Shown: in pieces, positions 36,073 through 48,315 of the stretch
Layout: the number at the start of each line of letters is the position of its first letter
How positions within the stretch are numbered: the first letter of the stretch is position 1
The notes under the pieces: model-generated
The model's database searches: none
Seen by the model: only the letters and a program-made list of their open reading frames with translations
What the model was told of the DNA's origin: nothing
Position numbers and translations under genes: made by a program
Source: an uncultured Gammaproteobacteria bacterium
GTDB lineage: Bacteria; Pseudomonadota; Gammaproteobacteria; UBA9214
Direction: 5' to 3'
Length of the DNA stretch: 64,000 bases
NCBI GenBank assembly: GCA_963827755.1
Contig: CAWHCQ010000011.1
Span: 128,001-192,000 of the forward strand

Positions 36073-37329
36073 ATGAGCCTGGAGCGGCAGAAATGGGGCT
36101 GGGCGATGTATGACTGGGCCAACTCGGCCTTCGCCACCACGGTAATGGCCGGTTTTTTCCCGGTATTTTTTAAAGACTACTGGAATGCAGGACTGGATCC
36201 GGTAGACAGCACTTTTCGACTGGGTATCGCCAATTCCCTCGCCAGCCTGCTGATCGTGCTGCTGGCGCCGCTGCTGGGGGCCGTGGCAGACAGGCTCGCC
36301 TGGCGCAAGGCCATGTTGCTGGCATTTGCATTGCTGGGTTCGCTGATGACTGCGGGGCTGTACCTGGTCGGACAGGGAGACTGGCAGCTGGCCATGTTTC
36401 TTTATATTTTCGCCGTCATCGGTTTCTCGGGCAGTAATATTTTCTATGATTCCCTGTTGCCGTTTGTCAGCCGCGAAAAGGACATGGACAGGGTCTCCGC
36501 ACTGGGGTTTTCACTCGGCTACCTTGGTGGTGGCGTGCTGCTTTCATTGAACGTTGGCATGACCCTGCATCCGGAATGGTTCGGCCTGTCAAGTTCAGTC
36601 AGCGCGGTGCAATGTTCATTTCTTGTTGTCGCTGCCTGGTGGCTGGTGTTTTCCATCCCCCTGTTCCTGTTTGTCGAGGAACCGGATGGCATCCGATCGA
36701 ACTTTTCCGTGCAGGTGTTGCTGGCAGGATTCCGGCGTGTCTGGCAGACACTGCACGAGGTCAGGCAGTTACGAAACGTATGGATGTTCCTGGTGGCCTA
36801 CTGGCTGTATATCGACGGCGTCGATACCATTGTCCGCATGGCGGTTGATTACGGAATGTCACTTGGATTTGACAGAAACAGCCTGATTCTTGCGTTACTG
36901 CTGACGCAATTTACGGGTTTTCCCTCGGCCTTGCTGTTTGGCAGGCTGGGCGGCCATTTCGGGGCAAGAGCCGGCATCCTGTTCGGCCTGTCCATTTATG
37001 TACTGGTAACGGTGTGGGCATCACGCATGTCGACAACCGCAGAATTCTATTACCTGGCAGTCATCATCGGATTTGCACAGGGCGGTGTTCAGGCGCTGAG
37101 CCGGTCACTGTATGCGCGCATGATTCCTGCGGGACGCAGTGCAGAATTCTTCGGTTTTTATAATATGCTCGGCAAGTTTGCCGCAATTATCGGTCCTTTT
37201 ATGGTGGGCTGGGTCGGCGCGCTGTCCGGTAATCCACGTACCGGTATTTTATCCTTGCTGCTCTTGTTCGTGGCCGGTGCGGCCTTGCTGCTGAAGGTCA
37301 GGGAGTCTGGCCCTGCCCGGTCCGTATGA
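36073..37329 (+). CDS. MFS transporter (UMF1/ATG22-like)
   Basis: WAMYDWANSAF, GYLGGG, QALSRS; about 12 TM helices. Confidence 0.88.
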   Translation: MSLERQKWGWAMYDWANSAFATTVMAGFFPVFFKDYWNAGLDPVDSTFRLGIANSLASLLIVLLAPLLGAVADRLAWRKAMLLAFALLGSLMTAGLYLVGQGDWQLAMFLYIFAVIGFSGSNIFYDSLLPFVSREKDMDRVSALGFSLGYLGGGVLLSLNVGMTLHPEWFGLSSSVSAVQCSFLVVAAWWLVFSIPLFLFVEEPDGIRSNFSVQVLLAGFRRVWQTLHEVRQLRNVWMFLVAYWLYIDGVDTIVRMAVDYGMSLGFDRNSLILALLLTQFTGFPSALLFGRLGGHFGARAGILFGLSIYVLVTVWASRMSTTAEFYYLAVIIGFAQGGVQALSRSLYARMIPAGRSAEFFGFYNMLGKFAAIIGPFMVGWVGALSGNPRTGILSLLLLFVAGAALLLKVRESGPARSV

Positions 37330-37518
37330 TTGTCATTCACCGCAGCCAGGCAGACGGGCGGCATCGGTTGCCGGTTTTGCAGGGCGGAACCCTGTTTTTA
37401 TGCGCTGAAAATACAGTATGTGTTATTTCATCGGCTGTCTGGATACAACATACTGTGTTCGGAGGCGTCCTGGATGTGTTCCAGGAAATTTTATAACCGA
37501 CTGAATTTTAGTAATTAT

Positions 37519-37547
37519 TTGAATATGTATAATAAAAACAATATAAT
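37519..37547 (+). promoter_or_regulatory. Sigma-70-like promoter upstream of rpfF, in a very AT-rich stretch
   Basis: TTGAAT-17 bp-TATAAT; GAGGAG RBS before ATG 37599. Confidence 0.55.
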
Positions 37548-37598
37548 ATCTGTGCTAATTATTAAACCAATTATAAATCGACCCGAGGAGTTCGTGTC

Positions 37599-38499
37599 AT
37601 GCATGATTATGTCGACCTGTTGCAACGACGTCTGCAGCATCTCAAGGTAAGTCACGATGCCTCCTCGAGAGCGATATGGGTCGAATTCAAATACGATAAC
37701 CGTCCCTGTTTTTCCACTGAATTGCTCGAGGACGTCTGGACCGTGCAGCGTTCCATCCGCCAGGCCGCCCTGTCCGGCTATCATGAAAATCGTGATGACA
37801 GGCTTCTCTTTCAGGTAATCGCTTCTACCGACAAAAACGTATTCAGTATGGGGGGTGACCTGGCTTACTTTATCGGGCTGATCGAGGCGAATGATGAAGA
37901 AGGTCTCAGGGACTATGCGAAACGTTGTATCGACATTCAGTACGCCACTATAAGTCATTACGATATACCGTTTACAAGCATTGCATGCGTGGGCGGGGAA
38001 GCCCTGGGCGGTGGATTCGAGGCCGCGTTATCAGCCAATGTGCTGGTTGCCGAGCAGCAGGCACGCTTCGGTTTCCCGGAGATTACATTTGGCATGTTCC
38101 CCGGGATGGGCGCTTTATCGCTGCTGACACGAAAGATCAACCCGTCAATGGCGCGCCGGCTTAGTCATGGACCATCGTATCTACACAGCTGCAGAATTAT
38201 ATGAAATGGGTGTGGTCGATATCCTGGCAGCGGAAGATGAAGGGCGAGCCGCTGTCAATGACTATATGCAACGCCACATATCGCTGGCCCCCGGATACCA
38301 CGGTTTCCAGGCGGCGATTGACCGGGTTAACCCGGTTAATTATGAAGAAATGTGTGACGTTGTCGGGCTTTGGGTGCAGGCTGCGTTACAGACTACCGAA
38401 AAGAACCGGCGCCTGATGGCCTACTTTGCCCGCGCCCAGGCAAGACGAAGTATCAGTTCTGAAAATATGGCTGAAGTCGTTGATTATAATTCAGCCTGA
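37599..38499 (+). CDS. rpfF: DSF synthase RpfF (crotonase superfamily); apparent +1 indel near 38163 splits it into ORFs 37599-38204 and 38167-38499
   Basis: RPCFS, FSMGGDL, ALGGGFEAALS and GFPEITFGMFPGMGA (both catalytic Glu present), then IYTAAELYEMGVVD; convergent with an RpfC-type kinase. Confidence 0.9.
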
Positions 38500-38514
38500 T
38501 CAATAAATGATTTG

Positions 38515-41100
38515 TCAGTTGAGCGCGGCCCTTTTCTCAAATGCAGTTAGCTTGATCTGAAGCAGCTGGACAGCGTCATCTGTTGCGCGACTGATGGCCT
38601 GCGCATGTGTAATACCTTTACTGTCAAATTCATCAGCACCAATGTTCTGTGCAACCTTGCTGAGATATGCGAGCCGGGTTAGCCCAAGGTAAAGTGCACA
38701 TCCCTTGAGGGCATGAGCATGATCGCTGAACGCAGTCCGGTTATGAGCAGCTAAAGCGGATTCAAGGCCCTCGAGATCATTTCTTGCATCGGTTTCGAAA
38801 TTCCTGATCAGTTCGATAACGAAATCATAATTTCCTTCTGTAAGGTTCACGAGTTTTTCAAACTCCTCAGCATCCAGAACCGGAAATGATTCCAGGTCAG
38901 GGTCCGGCTGCGTTTCCTGCGGTTTCGCTTCGGTGGAAAACACGGCATCTGTATCATCAGTATGTAAGGATGCGAAGGTCTCCTGGAGCTTGAACAGTGA
39001 TACAGGCTTGGTAAGGAACAGGTCAATTCCAGCGGCCTCGCAAGTCGCCCTGCATTCTTCAGTAGCATCTGCTGTAAGGATGATGAATGGAATGGGCGGA
39101 TGACCGCCATGCGCAAAACAGTAGGCCTGGTAGGCTTCAATTCCTCCAAGATCCGGCATATTCTTGTCGACGATTACTGCATCGTACGCGCTGTCCTCAA
39201 GTGCGGTAAGGATTGCTTCACCACCATCTACGATGGTGTACTGGTGCCCGAGTTTGTCGAGCATACGCTGCAATACAAGCCGGTTGGTCGCGCTGTCGTC
39301 GCCAACAAGAATACGTAAGGGTCTGCCTGATTTCTGTTCAATGACCTGTTGGTGTGAGAAGTGAATCACATCGTCCTCCTTGCTGTGCCTCGAATAACAG
39401 GCATGTAGTACATTGATAAGAATATTTCCCTCCAGTGGTGGCTCCAGGACGAAAACCTGGTCCTGATTATTTTCATTGATGTTGACTGGATACTGCTCTG
39501 TCCCGATGAGGATTATTTTCACCCCGTCGGGGATGCTCGTATCCTCACCAGAGAGTATTCCCGCGAGTTTCTGCTCATACGGCATACTGTCTATTATCAG
39601 GGCTGTATGGTTGCCCTGAGTGAATAGCAGCCGGCCTGCCTGATCGAAAGTTGTTGCCAGATCACAGGGCATGTTCCATTCTTTCAGGCTGGCGGGGATG
39701 CTGTCCTCTGCATCTGCCTGCGGGTTTAGATACACTACCCGGCATCGGCTGGTCCATGCCTGACCGTTCACGGCCGCAGCCCGGGTGTTGGCCGCAAACG
39801 GGATATCGAACCAGAAGGTAGAACCCACACCCGGGGTACTCTGTACACCGATTTGTCCGCCCATCAATTCGACAAGGTTCTTGCAGATGGTCGTGCCCAG
39901 CCCGGTGCCGCCATAATTTCTCGATACGCTGCTATCGGCCTGGGTGAATGGTTCAAAGATCGCCTGGATCCGGTCTGCAGGTATGCCCGTGCCTGTATCG
40001 GCAACCTCGAATCTCAATACGGTCTGACCGGTGTCAATATCGCGTGGATATATACGTATGGAGATGATTCCCTGTGCGGTAAACTTGATAGCGTTTCCGA
40101 CTAAATTGATAATGATTTGCTGGAGTTTATCCGGGTCACCGGTTAGCAGAAAGGGCGTTCGCGGGTCAATTATTTCCTGCAGTTGCAGGCGTTTCCCCTC
40201 TATCTGGGGCTGAAAAATTCGCATGGTTGTGTTGATCAGGGCATAAAGATCAAATTCAATTTGTTCCAGTGTTAATTGACCGGCCTCGATTTTTGACAGG
40301 TCGAGAATCTCGTTAATCTGCCGTGCGAGAGCATGACCGGAAGCATAAATGGTGTCAACATATTCCCTGTCTTCAGGTTCCAGCGGTCTTAATTTCAGCA
40401 AGTCTGTCATGCCAAGAATGCCGTTAAGCGGGGTACGGATTTCGTGTGACATACAGGAAAGAAAATCACTCTTCGCGCGGCTTGCGTCATCTGCGCGCTG
40501 CCGGGCTTCGTAGAGTCGTCGGATCAAGACGGCGGAATAGGCCGGGATCAACAGTAAAGTACATGCTAGGCCAATTGCCAATTCTTGCGTGGGTCGTCCA
40601 GTAAGGGGTGAATTTTGCAACAAATGCAAAACCTAGAAGTGATACAGAGGCAGACAGATAAAGATATTTCTCGCCGTAGCGGAACCCATTGCCGAGTGTT
40701 ACCCAAAGGTAAACACCAAACCATGGTGCGCCCATATGGTCCAGTTACATAAAGTCCATAACTTAATAGCCCCAATATCTCACAAGATACCTAATAATTC
40801 GTCTTGAGGAGGATGGCATATTGCCAGATATGCTAGAGAAGATGTGAGATAATAATAGTGCAAAATCAGGAATGATCAGGATAAACCAATATTCCTTTTG
40901 ACCAATAGTTCAGATACCTGCGTTATCCTCATGGTTTAATTATCAAATAAATAGATCATGAAAGCGATAGGGTATAGCGAGTACGTAGTACTGCTTGTTC
41001 TTGCTCAGGAGATCCTGTCCAGCCAATCAGATCTTAGGCACATCTTGAGCTTATGCAATGAGTCTTTGCTTGGAGAATTTTGTGCCTGGGCTGTAGTCAT
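38515..41100 (-). CDS. rpfC: RpfC-type DSF sensor hybrid histidine kinase (TM-HisKA-HATPase-REC-HPt); several indels between ~40590 and 41040
   Basis: Pieces across frames from ATG 41100: [27 protein letters not shown]; then [68 protein letters not shown]. Confidence 0.88.
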
Positions 41101-41186
41101 TGCTCTTTTTTAACCTGCACTGGAAGGTATTCCTGTTAACAAGACGGATAACGGCAGCGCAGGTATAATGCTTTAAGCGTCATTCT

Positions 41187-41444
41187 GTGGAGAATAATTG
41201 CTTGTTGCAAGATACTGTAATTAAAGAAATATCTTCTCATCTCAAGTGCCGGCCTGGAGATATCACGCTGGACATGCGCCTGGACGAATTGGGGATCGAT
41301 TCACTGGGGGCTATTACTATCATGTACGAACTGGAAGACCGGCTGGATGTTGAAATTCCCAATGAAGTCTTTGATAAACTCACAATAGTCAATGACATTG
41401 TGAATCAACTGGAACTCCTGCTGGGAAATAGAAATTCGGAATGA
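41187..41444 (+). CDS. Acyl carrier protein (NodF-like); the start may be TTG 41202
   Basis: LGIDSLG phosphopantetheine site; its stop overlaps the ketosynthase ATG (ATGA). Confidence 0.9.
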   Translation: MENNCLLQDTVIKEISSHLKCRPGDITLDMRLDELGIDSLGAITIMYELEDRLDVEIPNEVFDKLTIVNDIVNQLELLLGNRNSE

Positions 41445-42662
41445 CAGGCCGGGTTGTCATTACAGGCCTTGGCAGCGTCTGCGGACTGGGTGTCGGTGTT
41501 GCGGCTTTCTGGGATGCTCTCTGCCGGGGACATACATCCATCGGGCCGCTGACAGGATTTGCGGACGATGTAAAGATTCAAACCGGTTCTCGACTGGAGG
41601 GTTTCCAGCCGGAGCAATACTTCCCGCGGGATGTACTGCCACTCCTTGATCGTTTCTCGCAGTTCGCACTATTGGCGGCACGGGAGGCTGTCGAGGATGC
41701 CGGGCTTGCTGCAGGCAGTGAAGATCCTGAGGCAGGCGGCCGCCATTATCGGGACGGGTTGTGGCGGAAAGCAGACGGATGAAGAAACTTATACAAAGCT
41801 CTACAAGGAGCAGGGCAAGCGTGTCCACCCGCTGACCATTCCCAGGGGTATGCCCAGTGCAGCAGCCAGCATGGTCAGCCAGCAGATTGGCATCAAGGGC
41901 CCGGTCTTTTCGGTTACCAGTGCATGTGCGTCTGGCGCCCATGCAATCATCCAGGGCCGCATGATGATTCAGTCGGGGCTGGTGGATATTGCCCTGGTCG
42001 GGGGGACCGATGCCCCTTTCACCTATGGTCTGTTGAAGGCCTGGGAAGCCTTGCGGGTCGTGTCGAATGATACCTGCCGTCCATTTTCAAGCGACCGGTC
42101 CGGCATGGTGCTGGGAGAAGGCGCCGGGATGCTGATCCTGGAGTCTGAACGGCATGCAAGCCGGCGTGGTGCGCGTATTTATGCCGAATTTGCCGGTTGT
42201 GGCATGTCATCTGATGCAGGTCATATTACCCGTCCGGATATAGACGGTATTTCCAGGGCGATAACAGCTGCCCTTGAAGATGCCGCATTGCCCACAGAAT
42301 CGGTGGATTACATTAATGCACATGGTACGGGTACGGTTGCCAACGATCTGGCTGAAACGCAGGCGATAAACAGGGTATTTGGCAGGCATGCCGGCGCCCT
42401 GGCGGTTTCTTCAACCAAGTCGATGCATGGGCATGCGCTTGGGGCAGCCAGTGCGCTGGAACTGGTTGCCACAACCCTGGCGGTGGTAAACAACAGGATA
42501 CCGCCTACGGCAAATTTTACAGGGCCCGGGGAGGGATGTGATCTGGATTATGTGCCCAACCTGGCACGAGAGAAACAGGTTGATGTTGCCCTGTCCAATG
42601 CATTTGCCTTCGGTGGATTGAATGCCGTCATAGCATTGAAATCCTGGGTGCCCGGTGGTTAA
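41441..42662 (+). CDS. Beta-ketoacyl-ACP synthase, FabF family, NodE-like; apparent +1 indel near 41723
   Basis: RVVITGLG, DRFSQFA, TSACAS (Cys), NAHGTGT (His), STKSMHGH (His), SNAFAFGG. Confidence 0.9.
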
Positions 42663-43743
42663 TTAGCCAGGTTTTCTAAACAGGTAGTGGCTGTTACCGT
42701 AGACTGTGCCTTCCATGGGCGCGAAGACGGCCTTGCAGAGTGAAAAGTATTCATTCCAGTGGGCGATTGCCCTGGTATCAAAGACCGATTTGTACAGGGA
42801 AGGGATGTTGTTCCAGTAGCGCCTGTGCCATTCATCCAGTGTCCGCCAGTAATTAAGTCCATTTATAAACCAGTTTCCTTCCAGGTCGAGAATGGTCTGT
42901 ATGACGAAAGAATTCGGCATGAGGCCAGACTCTTCCACCAGGGAAATATATACCAATTCTTGTCTTAGTTGGGTCTAGAAATTGTGGGATGACAATCTTT
43001 GAGGTAATAAAATGATTGAATGATCTGCCGCCTGGAATGAGTAGTTTACTTATCTTTTCATGTATCAGAGCTGCATGTTGTATACATGCTCAAATACTGC
43101 AACTGGATATTACAAGATCGATAGTTTAGATTTCCCAAGCTTCATTAAAGGTAGTTTGTTCGAAAGTACCTTCTATTAATTTAAATTTCCCACTACCTAG
43201 AATAGTCTGACGGATTTTGCAATCGTTCTGTCTCAGGTATGCGATTTGTACAGTGCTTGGGGTAATGCCAACAATCTCAAGATCGGGAAATTCCTCTAAA
43301 AGATAGGTCTCGAGAGACCCAAACCCACAGCCAATGTTGAGAATGCGCTCATGGCCTTCTATTCTTGCGCGTTTTGCAATCAGCGCGAACTTGGCCCGTT
43401 GTGCTTCTTCCAGTGATGCGCTGGAGGAGCGAATTATCTCAGGGGATTCACCATAGTAGGCCATTGAATAGGCCATGTATCGCGTATCAAGAAAGCTTGC
43501 AAAGAATTCCGGCCGCTCATCATAGTGGCTGTCCATCAGGGCTTCTGTTTCTTCCATCATCGGGCCCTGGTCTGTTGATATGCCCAATGATTGGAGAGTA
43601 ACAGGGTTATCTGAAAGGCGCCTGTATTCACGCTCGAAGTAGCGGACCAGATGGTCTTCATGCCTGGCAAGTTCATCGCTACCCGGGCCAAAAATATTCT
43701 TGCTGGCGAGCAGGTCGCTGATTTCTTTATCGAGAATTGCCAT
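42663..43743 (-). CDS. SAM-dependent methyltransferase, cyclopropane-fatty-acid synthase (CMAS) family; several indels between ~42900 and 43200
   Basis: HYD...FF..FLD.RYMAYSMAYY, SLEEAQRAK, ILNIGCGFGSL; shifted frames give AVFEH, LIPGG, YFPGG, NYWRTLDEW, WNEYFSLC. Confidence 0.82.
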
Positions 43744-43861
43744 CAGATATTCGGATTACTGATCCTGTTGCAGGATATCGCTCGTGGAATGTGAGCGAGT
43801 GTAACCCATAATTTGCAAACTGGCAGCAGCCAGGATCAGGGGGGTAAGAGTCGTATGGACC

Positions 43862-44920
43862 TTATCGACTGTGTGCCAGTGGCTTGTCCGGCAGCATGCC
43901 GTGTATTTTTGTTATCTTGTCGAGTTGGGTTTTGAAGGCCGTAAAACATTCCGGATCAAAGTGCTTGCCGCTGTGGTTTTCCATGTATTCAAGCGCGGCT
44001 TGCATGGACCAGGCATTTTTATAAGGGCGATCAGATACCAGTGCATCATAGACGTCGGCGACGGCCACGATGCGTGCCTCAATCGGGATATCTTTACCTT
44101 TTTTGCCGTAAGGGTAGCCGGTGCCGTCGAATTTTTCATGATGCCCGAGTGCGATAATGCCGCCCAGCTGCAGGTACTTTGAAGGACTGTCCTTCAGAAT
44201 CTCATACCCGATTGTGGTGTGATTCTTCATTATCTCGAATTCTTCAGCCGTCAGTTTACCGGGTTTGAGCAGGATACCGTCCCTGATGCCAATCTTGCCG
44301 ATGTCGTGCATGGGTGCTGACATTTCAATGATTTCTGCATCCGCCTCGGAGAATCCCATTTGTTCTGCTATGAGACGTGAATACTTCGCCATGCGAATAA
44401 TGTGATTGCCTGTTTCCTCGTCCCGATATTCTCCGGCCCTCGCCAGCCGCAGCAGGGTTTCACGTTCGCGTAATCTGATTTCACTGGTAGCCTCGGCAAC
44501 ACGTCGTTCAAGCCAGCGGGAGCGGTCGCTGATAATCTTGTATTGCTGCGACTGGGTCAGCAGGTTGCGGCAGCGTGCGCGGCATTCATAGTGGTCAACC
44601 GGTTTCATCAGGAAGTCGGTGGCCCCGGCCTCCAGCGCATCGTAACGCACTTTTATGTCTTCAATGGAAGTCACCATGATGACAGGGATATGAGCGCAGG
44701 CCGGGTTGCTACGGAACTTCCTGATAAATTCAACGCCATTCATTTCCGGCATCTTGTAATCCACCAGCACCAGGTCGGCGGCTCTTTTTACCGTCCATTC
44801 GAGCGCCTCTACCGGGTTCGCAAACGCCTCTGTAACGAGGTTTCGCTCAAGCGTACTGACCAGCTGTTGCAGGATTTTGCGGCTGGTAAGCTGGTCATCA
44901 ATGATCAGAATTGTCGCCAT
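43862..44920 (-). CDS. rpfG: RpfG-type response regulator (REC + HD-GYP c-di-GMP phosphodiesterase)
   Basis: IIDDQLTSR, VDYKMP, EYRDEETGNH, MHDIGKIG, HHEKFDGTGYP, VADVYDAL..RPYK. Confidence 0.9.
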   Translation of the reverse strand: MATILIIDDQLTSRKILQQLVSTLERNLVTEAFANPVEALEWTVKRAADLVLVDYKMPEMNGVEFIRKFRSNPACAHIPVIMVTSIEDIKVRYDALEAGATDFLMKPVDHYECRARCRNLLTQSQQYKIISDRSRWLERRVAEATSEIRLRERETLLRLARAGEYRDEETGNHIIRMAKYSRLIAEQMGFSEADAEIIEMSAPMHDIGKIGIRDGILLKPGKLTAEEFEIMKNHTTIGYEILKDSPSKYLQLGGIIALGHHEKFDGTGYPYGKKGKDIPIEARIVAVADVYDALVSDRPYKNAWSMQAALEYMENHSGKHFDPECFTAFKTQLDKITKIHGMLPDKPLAHSR

Positions 44921-45246
44921 ACGAATTCACAAGTACCTGTCAAAATCCACGATAAATGCCTTCAAGGCCGCCCGTCTTGTCCCGGGTGCCCGGCCCGCAA
45001 ACCAGAATAATGTCATAACTATATGATGTAATATATGAAACATATTCTGTTACCCGACAAAACATGCTATCGGCAGAAGCGCATATATATTGAGTCTTGA
45101 TACCGGGCTTGATTCCGGGCCGGTTACCGTTCCCTTGAAATCTCAACCGCCCGGTTAACTGGTCAAATTACCCTGTGCAGCCGGCCATCCTTGCAGCAGA
45201 ACGCATGCCCGGTAGAATGTCGCCGAAAAGAGCCCGGGAATAGAGT

Positions 45247-45471
45247 ATGGTTGATGATCGCAAGAATGAGCCAAAAGTGCCTTCGTTTCTGGACGTGCTG
45301 GGAAGCGTCCTGGCGAGTATGTTCGGTGTGCAAAGTAATCGTAAGCGTGAAGAAGACTTCACCCACGGGAAGCCTTCGCAGTACATCGTCATCGGCTTGA
45401 TCGTGACGATAGTTTTTATTTTGACAATCTGGGGGGTGGTCAAGCTGGTGATGAAGCTGGCGGGTATCTAG
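45247..45471 (+). CDS. DUF2970-type small membrane protein
   Basis: SVLASMFGVQS..RE.DF and a TM helix. Confidence 0.82.
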   Translation: MVDDRKNEPKVPSFLDVLGSVLASMFGVQSNRKREEDFTHGKPSQYIVIGLIVTIVFILTIWGVVKLVMKLAGI

Positions 45472-45549
45472 TTGCGGTGTGCCGGGAAGTCACCACCTGA
45501 CAGACGGTCATATCTGAACCACCGTCCTTCATTAATAATGCAGTAAAGG

Positions 45550-48315
45550 TCAAAGCGCCTGGATCTTTTCTTTTTGTCCTTCCAGGTTATTGATGACCGA
45601 GCCAAGTTCGGTCGCACGTGCACGTTCCTTTTCGACGACATCGGCCGGGGCCTTGTCTACAAAGCCCGGGTTGAGAAGTTTTTTCTCGCAGCGGCCCAGT
45701 TCATTTATCTTCTTCTCGAGTTCTTTAGTCAGTCGCAGGATCTCGCTGTCCTTGTCGATCAGGCCTGCAAGCGGAATCAGCAGTTTCATATCGCCGACCA
45801 GCGCGGTGGAAGACTCCGGTGCTGTTTTATTTACATCCAGCCAGGTAACGGATTCAATACGGCCGACACTCTCGAGGTAACGCCGGTTTCTGTCGAGCCG
45901 TTGCCTGTCTGTTGCAGAGCCATCCTGCAGCAGTACGGGTAACAACTTGCGGGGGTCGATATTCATGCCGCTGCGAATCTTGCGCACTCCTATAATGAAA
46001 TCCTTCACCCAGTTGATTTCCGCAAGCGCATTCCGGTCGATCTTGCCGGTGTCGGGTGCCGGGTAGGGCTGGCGCATGATGGTTTTTCCCGCAACACCGG
46101 CAAGCGGTGCCATGCGTTGCCAGATCTCCTCGCTGATGAAGGGGGTCAACGGGTGGATCAGTCTTAAAACGGTCTCCATTACCACGACCAGGGTTCTGCG
46201 TGTGCCACGCAGTGCCCCGGCGTCACCGTCAGGGTCCGTCAGCACCGGTTTCGATAGCTCCAGGTACCAGTCGCAGTATTCGTCCCAGATAAAGGTGTAA
46301 ATGGCCTGTGCTGCAAGGTCAAAGCGGTAGTTTTCGATGGCCTCGATGACTTCCTGTTCGGTCTGCTGCAGCAGGCTGATTATCCATCGATCGGCATCAT
46401 TCAGCAGCACCTCGCTGCCGTCCTGGCCGCAGTCCTGGCCCTCGGTATTCATCAGCACATAGCGGGCGGCGTTCCACAGCTTGTTGCAGAAGTTGCGGTA
46501 GCCCTCGATCCGTCCCAGGTCGAAGTTGATGTCACGGCCGGTGGAGGCGAGGGCGGCAAAGGTAAAACGCAAGGCATCGGTACCGAATGCCGGTATGCCG
46601 TCCGGAAAGTCCTTGCGGGTCATCTTGTCGATCCTGTCCGCCATCTTCGGCTGCATCAGGCCGGCGCGGCGCTTGGCAACCAGTGCCTCCAGCTCGATGC
46701 CATCGATCAGGTCGATCGGGTCGAGTACATTGCCCTTGGACTTGGACATTTTCTGGCCGTGTGCATCGCGCACCAGCCCGTGAATATAAACCTCCCGAAA
46801 CGGGACTTCACCGGTGAACTTGAGCCCCATCATGATCATGCGGGCGACCCAGAAGAAAATTATGTCAAAACCGGTGACCAGTACGCTGGTCGGGTAGAAG
46901 GTGTTCAGTTCTTCGGTCTTTTCCGGCCAGCCCAGCGTGCTGAAAGGCCAGAGCGCGGATGAGAACCAGGTATCGAGTACGTCTTCATCCTGGTGCAGGG
47001 CGAGTTCATCATCCAGGCCGTGTTTTTCACGCGCTTCTTTCTCGCTGCGCCCGACGTAGATATTGCCGGCCTCGTCATACCAGGCCGGTATCCGGTGTCC
47101 CCACCAGATCTGGCGCGAGATGCACCAGTCCTGGATATTGCGCATCCATTCGAAATAGGTGTTCTTCCAGTTGTCCGGCACGAATTTGATGCGCCCGTCC
47201 TCGACCGCCCTGATGGCCGGTTCCGCCAGCGGTGCGATCTTCACAAACCACTGGTCGGTCAGGAACGGCTCAACCACGGCGCCGGAGCGGTCGCCGCGCG
47301 GCACCATCAGTTTGTGGTCCTCGACCTTCTCCAGCAGTCCCGCAGCCTCGAGGTCGGCGACGATCTGCCTGCGCGCCTCGTAACGATCCATGCCGCCGTA
47401 CCGGCCGGGGGCCTCGTCATTGATGCAGGCATCGATGGTGAGAATATTGATCACCGGCAGGTCGTGACGCTTGCCCATTTCGTCGTCATTGAAATCATGG
47501 GCCGGCGTGATTTTCACGCAGCCGGTGCCGAATTCCGGGTCGACATAGTCATCGGCGATGACGGGAATGTCACGGTCCGTCAGCGGCAGGCGAATGTGCT
47601 TGCCGATCATCGACTGATAGCGCTCGTCGTCGGGATGCACGGCGACCGCCGTGTCGCCGAGCATGGTCTCGGGCCGCGTCGTGGCGACGACGAGACTGCC
47701 GGAGCCGTCTGCCAGCGGATAGCGCATGTGCCAGAGATGGCCATCTTCCTCTTCGGAAACCACCTCGAGATCGGATACCGCGGTGTGCAGCACCGGGTCC
47801 CAGTTCACCAGGCGCTTGCCGCGGTAGATCAGGCCTTCTTCATAGAGGCGGACAAAGGTCTCCCTGACGGCCTGTGACAGGCCCTCGTCCATGGTGAAGC
47901 GCTCACGGCTCCAGTCCACGGATGAACCCATGCGCCGCAGCTGGCGGGTAATGGTCCCGCCGGATTCATGTTTCCACTCCCAGATGCGCTTGATGAATTT
48001 CTCGCGGCCGAGATCATGCCGGGTCAGGCTGTCGCTGTTGAGCTGGCGTTCGACCACCATCTGCGTCGCGATGCCCGCATGGTCGGTGCCGGGCTGCCAC
48101 AGGGTGTTGTCGCCGCGCATGCGGTGGTAGCGGGTCAGCGCGTCCATCAGGGTGTCCTGAAAGGCGTGCCCCATGTGCAGGCTGCCGGTTACATTCGGCG
48201 GCGGAATCATGATGCAGTAGGGCGCACCTTCACCGGAAGGCGCAAAATGTCCTTCCCGCTCCCAGGTTTCGTACCATTGCTGTTCTATGGCGTGCGGATT
48301 GTAGGTCTTTTCCAT
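45550..48315 (-). CDS. valS: Valine--tRNA ligase
   Basis: [25 protein letters not shown]. Confidence 0.98.

Follow-up and report, generated by a model that had tools for sequence, protein, structure and literature searches.

A putative DSF-type signalling cluster with its own acyl carrier protein, ketosynthase and methyltransferase in marine sulfur bacteria

Introduction

Signals of the DSF (diffusible signal factor) type are described as by-products of general fatty acid synthesis, in which RpfF is the sole dedicated enzyme (PMC13465397; papers are cited here by PMC number and for the portions of their text that were accessible). Here, we describe a cluster of six genes in which rpfF, rpfC and rpfG, the genes of a DSF-type quorum-sensing system, stand together with genes for an acyl carrier protein (ACP), a beta-ketoacyl-ACP synthase (KS) and a methyltransferase (MT), and which may encode a dedicated route to a modified signal. 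The cluster lies in a stretch of 64,000 nucleotides from an uncultured gammaproteobacterium (contig CAWHCQ010000011.1, positions 128,001 to 192,000), called the window below, to which all coordinates refer unless a locus is named. The source genome comprises 52 contigs and 2.85 Mb, with a completeness of 91.8% and a contamination of 5.4%. DSF-type genes are reported to be abundant in marine sediments (PMC12781772), and the cluster therefore bears on communication in sediment communities.

Gene content and setting of the locus

The six genes occupy positions 37599-44920 and are flanked by the genes of peptide chain release factor 3 (RF3) and of a major facilitator superfamily (MFS) transporter on one side, and by that of valyl-tRNA synthetase (ValRS) on the other. 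The first gene (37599-38499, plus strand) encodes a crotonase of the RpfF family, a putative DSF-type signal synthase, recognized by Pfam ECH_1 and by the NCBIfam model PRK08788, with RpfF as the second best model. Only 15 bp separate its end (38499) from that of the convergent gene for an RpfC-type hybrid sensor kinase (38515 to about 41030, minus strand), in which HisKA, HATPase, REC and Hpt domains are found. On the plus strand follow the genes for a dedicated ACP of 85 residues (41187-41444; Pfam PP-binding, with the phosphopantetheine site DSL) and for a FabF-like KS (41441-42662; N- and C-terminal Pfam ketoacyl-synt domains, with the Cys-His-His triad), the stop codon of the former and the start codon of the latter sharing the ATGA at 41441-41444. 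The end of the KS gene at 42662 abuts the stop codon, at 42663, of a minus-strand gene (42663-43743) for an S-adenosylmethionine (SAM)-dependent MT of the CMAS family, which matches Pfam CMAS and has about 353 residues when intact. Upstream of it, on the same strand, lies an intact rpfG (43862-44920), whose product joins REC and HD-GYP domains (Pfam Response_reg, HD_5 and HD) in the manner of regulators acting as cyclic di-GMP (c-di-GMP) phosphodiesterases. A first-pass annotation of the window, made from the sequence alone, had named these six genes, and the Pfam and NCBIfam profiles bear its identifications out; the gene order and the tight spacing that it reported are exact.

The G+C content is 0.45-0.53 over the cluster (37000-46000) vs. 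0.55-0.62 in the flanks, which is consistent with acquisition of the cassette from outside. A scan of promoters and terminators was uninformative, as it returned 7 promoter-like sites for 9.9 expected and 12 terminator-like sites for 7.8 expected.

Recurrence of the gene set

The first-pass annotation had suggested a check, namely whether rpfF, rpfC and rpfG occur together with ACP, KS and CMAS-type genes in several lineages. A profile of the MT, built from five orthologues, was scanned over one genome per species for 185,579 species, from which the genome of the window itself may have been excluded, and the neighbouring genes were called by tblastn with the proteins of G024, a congener of the source organism. 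The scan returned 38 loci: a KS gene adjoins the MT gene in 31 of them, the contig ends at the MT gene in two, and in five, which belong to metagenome-assembled genomes (MAGs) of Rhodothermales and Bdellovibrionales and to one unclassified MAG, the MT gene stands alone. Among the 27 loci whose sequence extends 6.5 kb or more on the KS side, the MT, the KS, the ACP, an RpfC-type kinase and the crotonase occur together in 22, the remaining five being L056, which has no crotonase, L060, which has no kinase, and three with the MT alone. Carriers among the 22 are MAGs labelled Ectothiorhodospiraceae, Thiohalobacter, Thiogranum, a Chromatiales MAG, a Pseudomonadota MAG, several unclassified gammaproteobacterial MAGs, and Sedimenticola, the latter with S. 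selenatireducens DSM 17993, two strains of S. hydrogenitrophicus and one MAG; the cultured Sedimenticola isolates carry intact clusters (L042-L044). A recurrence in 22 of 27 loci rules out a chance juxtaposition of the genes.

Unsupervised clustering of the open reading frames (ORFs) at 23 loci with this gene set (module loci) recovered the same components, with the KS in 22, the crotonase and the MT in 21 each, the kinase in 19, the ACP in 18, RpfG in 15 and a REC-Hpt protein in 10. No family of flanking genes is common to more than six of the 23 loci; thus, the gene set recurs as a unit in differing genomic contexts, and the suggested check was passed. The REC-Hpt protein, of about 440-525 residues and devoid of a kinase core, is encoded between rpfG and the MT gene (for example at L043:8387-9964) and has no counterpart in the window.

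The form with the module is in the minority. In a class-level sample of 201 genomes, one per family, an RpfF-like gene (E ≤ 1e-40) was found in 31, to which that of the window's own genome, which is split, has to be added, and the MT (E ≤ 1e-60) in only two, the window's genome and G198.

A peculiar arrangement was observed at L060 (7117-13116), where crotonase, ACP, KS and MT genes lie beside the gene of a 689-residue GGDEF-EAL protein, with no RpfC or RpfG within 10 kb. The N-terminal 255 residues of this protein match no Pfam family and no solved RpfR domain, and the locus may be a variant of this system whose receptor is RpfR-like. Since the set stands there beside a GGDEF-EAL protein, and not beside RpfC and RpfG, the four biosynthetic genes travel together whatever the receptor.

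The encoded proteins

Protein comparisons were performed on the intact orthologues of G024 (locus L012), in which all six genes are open. The crotonase of G024 scores 307.3 bits on PRK08788 (cut-off 177), on which the two pieces of the window crotonase reach 198 and 81 bits; the same pieces score 128 and 46 bits on the RpfF model (cut-off 550). The four best matches of the G024 protein in the PDB are all RpfF or BDSF (Burkholderia diffusible signal factor) synthases (7zq7, 3e-52; 3m6m, 9e-50; 6dgn, 5.5e-44; 5fus, 1.2e-43), and the next ones, enoyl-CoA hydratases, follow at 2e-14. In the alignment with 3m6m both catalytic glutamates of RpfF, which we take to be Glu141 and Glu161 in the numbering of Xanthomonas campestris, have aligned counterparts in the G024 crotonase, and the stretch GGGFEAALS...FGFPE can also be read in the translation of the window crotonase. 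RpfF acts as a dehydratase and thioesterase on 3-hydroxyacyl-ACP (PMC13465397, PMC13660987), and the crotonase, by sequence a member of the RpfF family, is predicted to have the same two activities.

Intact orthologues of the kinase have 853-859 residues and the same set of domains as the window kinase, with three to five hydrophobic segments ahead of HisKA. The protein has the plan of RpfC, with a multi-pass membrane sensor ahead of the HisKA, HATPase, REC and Hpt domains. In the RpfG of the window, the HD and HHE..DG.GYP motifs are readable in the translation behind the fused REC domain, and the protein shares 79-82% identity with its counterparts in congeners of both cluster types.

The ACP scores 44.7 bits on Pfam PP-binding and carries the serine for phosphopantetheine in its DSL motif, but stays under every NCBIfam cut-off for ACPs (42.7 vs. 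71 bits), which argues for a divergent protein distinct from the housekeeping AcpP. The KS orthologue P0002 reaches 420.7 bits on the fabF model, whose cut-off is 493.75, and 406 bits on PRK07314 (cut-off 387); it aligns over its full length with FabF structures (4ls5, E 2e-95) and keeps the Cys, His, His residues. Separate housekeeping copies of FabF, 39-40% identical to the KS, occur in all five related genomes searched, and the KS of the cluster is FabF-like without being the housekeeping FabF. A polyketide beta-branching cassette, which would consist of an ACP, a decarboxylating KS, a 3-hydroxy-3-methylglutaryl (HMG) synthase and two crotonases, was considered as another identity for the gene set and rejected: no HMG synthase is conserved, the Cys of the KS is kept and the crotonase is RpfF-like.

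Co-inheritance with a distinct rpfF/rpfC lineage

The relation between the module and the type of crotonase was studied in a maximum likelihood tree, obtained by a quick search and with support only from SH-aLRT, an approximate likelihood ratio test of the Shimodaira-Hasegawa type, of 59 crotonases, 24 of them linked to the module and 35 unlinked. Three duplicates from the same genomes, high-scoring segment pairs shorter than 200 residues and the broken crotonase of the window were excluded. The unlinked sequences, 33 of 35, fall together with the crotonase of L060 in one clade (SH-aLRT 99), the other two being long branches, and 22 of the 24 module-linked sequences lie outside that clade. The label of module linkage changes four times on the tree, in comparison with a mean of 18.9 for shuffled labels, and none of 500 shuffles gave a value as low.

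Within the genus of the source organism, most species have the order RF3-MFS-rpfF-rpfC-rpfG-ValRS, with no genes between rpfC and rpfG, and an orthologue of the MT is present in six of 37 genomes, G012 being a seventh. The flanks and the regulator are well conserved between congeners (73-92% identity for RF3, RpfG and ValRS, 67-85% for the MFS protein). Between them, the crotonase is only 34-43% identical among at least three classes of alleles, of which one has the module and two lack it, and the kinase only 35-39% identical between loci of the module type and ordinary loci. The comparison of G023 with G003 is illustrative, with 92, 90 and 86% identity for RF3, ValRS and RpfG, respectively, but 42% for the crotonase and 53% for the kinase. 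Diverged rpfF and rpfC between conserved flanks imply that the pair of synthase and sensor is exchanged as a cassette while RpfG stays, and the ACP, KS and MT genes are part of one such cassette. The RpfF and RpfC linked to the module form a lineage of their own, which takes the place of the ordinary pair at one locus within the genus.

Some further observations concern this exchange. At the conserved locus (L012-L019) it resembles a pherotype-like polymorphism, and G002 holds two rpfF/rpfC pairs of different classes on its contigs C4 and C5 (L016 and L017), one of them at the conserved locus. In G007, an ORF of 303 codons lies between the KS and MT genes (L013:9382-10293) and looks by eye like an integrase-type (rve-like) insertion sequence transposase.

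Frame breaks in the window copy

Four of the six genes, those of the crotonase, the kinase, the KS and the MT, are frameshifted in the window. The crotonase is split into 37599-38204 and 38167-38499, with a single extra base near 38160. The main frame of the kinase covers 38515-40629, the N-terminal membrane piece is found in another frame (40487-40735), with one break near 40587, and its first 125 or so codons (40736 to about 41030), located by tblastn with the N-termini of the G012, G019 and G024 kinases, contain several stops and frame changes. As the N-terminal coding sequence of the kinase is broken there, the apparently intergenic region 40736-41186 is mostly degraded kinase coding sequence. 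The KS is divided into 41441-41782 and 41631-42662, with one break near 41723, and the MT into 43126-43743 and 42663-42956, interrupted at 42890 and garbled over 43066-43125.

Taken at face value, these frameshifts would be real and the cassette a decaying cluster of pseudogenes, in a strain that has lost both the synthesis and the sensing of the signal and kept RpfG. The concentration of the breaks in these four genes speaks for such a decay, as do the several stops and frame changes in the first codons of the kinase. RF3, the MFS protein, RpfG and ValRS, beside them, are all intact. Four overlapping or abutting ORF pairs elsewhere in the window did not look like split genes in a comparison with Pfam: in no pair did both members match one family, though for three of the eight ORFs there was no match at all.

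The locus was also compared with contigs of four public sediment metagenome runs (X1-X4), aligned to 37500-45000, which are 94-98.5% identical to the window in the listed pieces. At least 12 length differences were found, located at the break sites, and all 12 of those listed are single bases that are extra in the window, never the reverse; five of them fall within 60 bases. For the crotonase, the extra base is absent from the X1 and X4 contigs, X2 and X3 having no coverage there. This one-directional pattern suggests a systematic error of the consensus and not mutation, and the clustering of five extra bases likewise argues against decay. Two features of the same comparison can be read in favour of decay: the extra bases do not lie in homopolymer runs, and at 94-98.5% identity the run contigs possibly derive from another strain.

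Removal of nine of the listed bases in silico reopened the frames of the crotonase (from 212 to 310 residues) and of the KS (from 362 to 409), both then of full length, as expected of an erroneous consensus; the kinase was reopened in part (from 705 to 742 residues) and the MT frame stayed closed. Moreover, it is in the cassette that the locus varies between strains, so that the lowest read support would be expected there in a mixed sample, and the related short-read assembly G012 likewise breaks exactly here, one contig end falling inside the ACP gene and one inside the MT gene. The contigs of X1 match both sides of 40735-41055 and skip 246-319 bases of it; this interval, the most broken part of the coding sequence of the kinase sensor, is either a segment hypervariable among strains or one that was poorly assembled.

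Since the length differences are one-directional and the bad stretch coincides with the strain-variable cassette, we think it fairly probable that the frame breaks are errors of assembly or consensus in a strain-variable cassette of low coverage. Decay is clearly the less probable explanation of the two, though one to be taken seriously.

The proposed pathway and its alternatives

With moderate confidence, we propose that the locus is a self-contained DSF-type quorum-sensing cluster, whose synthase would be served by a dedicated ACP-bound pathway leading to a methylated or cyclopropanated signal. In such a pathway, the KS would condense an acyl primer with malonate on the dedicated ACP, and the resulting 3-oxoacyl-ACP would be converted to 3-hydroxyacyl-ACP by a housekeeping reductase of the FabG type, as no reductase is encoded in the cluster. 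The MT would add a carbon derived from SAM to the ACP-bound chain, most likely at an isolated cis double bond, so that a methyl-branched or cyclopropane-containing chain would result, and the crotonase would dehydrate the chain to a cis-2-enoyl thioester and hydrolyse it, with the release of a modified cis-2-unsaturated fatty acid. This acid would be sensed by the cognate RpfC-type membrane kinase, which would phosphorylate RpfG, whereby c-di-GMP would be lowered. A private ACP would, in addition, shield membrane lipid synthesis from the thioesterase activity of RpfF. The first-pass annotation had arrived at a model of this kind, with private ACP, KS and MT tailoring the signal; the protein families, the recurrence and the linkage to a distinct RpfF/RpfC lineage have strengthened it, and its chemistry stays at the level of prediction.

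A wider proposal would make this the first dedicated DSF biosynthetic cluster, producing a new class of autoinducer that is read by a co-evolved RpfC, with the cassette swapped at a single chromosomal locus among congeneric marine sulfur-cycling bacteria, whereby species of a shared sediment would use chemically distinct "dialects" that feed one conserved RpfG output. We advance it tentatively, as a possibility that lies a little on the doubtful side.

Several points weigh against a dedicated pathway to a methylated or cyclopropanated signal. Among the conserved families of the cluster there is no ketoreductase, other dehydratase, enoyl reductase, malonyl transferase or phosphopantetheinyl transferase, so that the pathway must borrow housekeeping enzymes. 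The G024 crotonase scores 198.3 bits on the NCBIfam RpfF equivalog, below the cut-off of 550; that cut-off was reached in none of the 201 class-level genomes, which argues that the model is narrow. The broken state of four genes in the window counts against the proposal as well, as does the fact that every chemical step, the substrate of the MT and the specificity of the signal are predicted from sequence. Where the chain would be methylated is a matter of conjecture, since SAM would find a poor nucleophile in a cis-2 double bond that is conjugated with a thioester.

The chemistry of the MT is, in fact, the weakest link of the pathway. The N-terminal piece of the window MT scores 65.8 bits on Pfam CMAS, and the AlphaFold model of the MT (predicted local distance difference test 93.8) has a class I SAM fold, for which the top Foldseek matches all belong to the CMAS family; a search of the ESM Atlas with the MT returned generic CMAS clusters only, and carriage of the MT on plasmids was looked for by tblastn against 72,556 plasmids, with only matches below 30% identity. 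Further difficulties arise at this level. The best cyclopropane fatty acid (CFA) synthase model gives the intact orthologue P0001 87.3 bits, with a cut-off of 400, and the alignment starts at model position 112. The structure search places plant alkaloid N-methyltransferases first (template modelling score about 0.75), which the helical N-terminal extension of the MT also resembles, and then UmaA of Mycobacterium tuberculosis and the CFA synthase of Aquifex. Of the Cys, Glu, His and Tyr that we take to be the active-site (bicarbonate-site) residues of CFA synthase, the Cys position is an invariant Met91 in the relatives of the MT. Finally, the relatives that stand alone in five of the 38 loci, without KS, ACP and crotonase, are 47-50% identical to the MT, and their existence implies that this type of enzyme is not tied to signalling.

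These features leave room for a pathway of the same layout with another methyl chemistry, in which the MT makes an ester or a primer and not a branch or a ring. In one variant, O-methylation of the carboxyl of the released acid would yield a volatile methyl-ester signal, for which the 3-hydroxy fatty acid methyl ester system of Ralstonia is reportedly a precedent; in the other, a BioC-like O-methylation of malonyl-ACP, followed by extension by the KS, would lead to a half-ester dicarboxylate. The heteroatom methyltransferases of the CMAS family that precede UmaA and CFA synthase in the structure search and the replacement of Cys by Met are in line with this chemistry, and so is a weak match of BioC to the MT (27 bits), BioC and BioH offering a precedent for a methyltransferase that redirects fatty acid synthesis (PMC4751477). 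By sequence, however, the MT comes closest, among the curated families, to cyclopropane fatty acid synthases, at 87, 80 and 76 bits. Together with a SAM motif, the MT has Glu213, His238 and Tyr292; these residues, invariant in 37 sequences, are aligned with the active-site Glu, His and Tyr of the Aquifex CFA synthase. Furthermore, no esterase of the BioH type is conserved in the cluster, and a literature search for PhcB together with cyclopropane-type methyltransferases found nothing. An ester or primer chemistry is, on these grounds, unlikely. The CFA-like residues are in keeping with a C-methylation or cyclopropanation at an isolated double bond, which would remain our choice.

A more radical alternative is that the ACP, the KS and the MT make or remodel some other lipid, whether of the membrane, lipid A or a secondary metabolite, being regulated by RpfC and RpfG or hitch-hiking with them, while RpfF uses ordinary intermediates as in Xanthomonas. 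It could account for the MT relatives that occur without rpf genes, for the orientation of the window MT, which is co-directional with rpfG and not with rpfF, and for the published DSF systems, which, in the portions of the source accessible, are without a dedicated ACP or KS, DSF synthesis being described as a branch of fatty acid synthesis (PMC13465397). At L051 (9929-11059), a relative with 47% identity, in a Bdellovibrionales MAG, has GDP-sugar modification genes on one side and the gene of a lipid A late acyltransferase on the other, neighbours which agree with this alternative and hint that the MT type of enzyme acts on lipid acyl chains. Against it stands the distribution of the trio, which goes with one particular RpfF lineage and did not turn up alongside the ordinary one, RpfF-like genes being far more widespread in the class sample (31 and the window's own) than the MT (2). 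The trio also remains with the crotonase where the receptor genes are replaced, as at L060, and lies within the cassette that congeners exchange as a unit, in which the output regulator RpfG is not included; a regulated target would be expected to co-vary with the regulator, and not with synthase and sensor. We therefore regard a separate lipid as an improbable product, and a signal built on the dedicated ACP as the better candidate.

If the proposal of a dedicated pathway is true, the structure of the signal would be genetically programmable, its synthesis would be insulated from that of membrane lipids, and the DSF family would hold more chemical diversity than the few cis-2 acids known so far. 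The exchange of synthase and sensor with a regulator that is kept, at one locus and in one genus, offers a natural system for the evolution of signal specificity, and the hypothesis is testable in cultured, non-pathogenic strains of Sedimenticola.

Comparison with known systems

Searches of the full-text literature gave no description of rpf genes associated with genes for ACP, KS and methyltransferase, although such genes might appear in the tables that supplement PMC12781772. Accessible portions of two papers note rpf genes in a vent sulfur oxidizer (PMC4136832) and in cold-seep bacteria (PMC12781772) without this module, and the methods of PMC13711827 mention the genomic context of rpfF homologues, with neither "acyl carrier" nor "methyltransferase" occurring in the text that was accessible.

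The closest general resemblance is to the rpf systems of Xanthomonas, Xylella and Stenotrophomonas, with which the cluster shares an RpfF crotonase, a hybrid membrane kinase, a REC/HD-GYP regulator and the convergent arrangement of rpfF and rpfC. It differs from them in the ACP, KS and CMAS-type MT genes inserted between rpfC and rpfG, in having no rpfB or rpfH beside the cluster, in a crotonase that fits PRK08788 and lies below the cut-off of the RpfF equivalog, and in its host, which is a marine sediment gammaproteobacterium and not a plant or clinical xanthomonad.

In Burkholderia and Cronobacter, whose signal is BDSF, rpfR adjoins rpfF. The crotonase described here is similar to the BDSF synthases 6dgn and 5fus (E about 1e-43), and the GGDEF-EAL protein beside the biosynthetic genes of L060 recalls the RpfF-RpfR pair, its N-terminus being unmatched; unlike that pair, the cluster of the window uses a relay of the RpfC/RpfG type.

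Mycolic acid methyltransferases act on ACP-bound chains, as is proposed here for the MT. The MT has in common with them and with CFA synthase the Pfam CMAS domain and the class I SAM fold, its invariant Glu, His and Tyr aligning with residues of CFA synthase, and departs from the phospholipid CFA synthases in that it is without their N-terminal domain, has Met in the place of Cys and scores 87 bits where 400 are required.

A contribution of specialized enzymes of fatty acid synthesis to DSF production has a parallel in X. campestris, where FabG2 and FabH, a reductase and a ketosynthase III, are encoded outside the rpf cluster. FabG2 and FabH feed DSF synthesis, so that the supply of precursors can depend on specialized enzymes of the fatty acid synthesis type (PMC5941067, PMC5011732). 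In contrast, the cluster reported here has an ACP, a ketosynthase II and a methyltransferase.

As to the exchange of cassettes, the nearest precedent for allelic rpfF/rpfC pairs is found in Stenotrophomonas maltophilia, in which rpf-1 and rpf-2 are alternative allele pairs of rpfF and rpfC at one locus (PMC4517397, PMC7283896). The alleles described here differ from those variants by whole extra biosynthetic genes, and between species, not strains. Looser parallels are the pherotypes of the agr and ComQXP systems.

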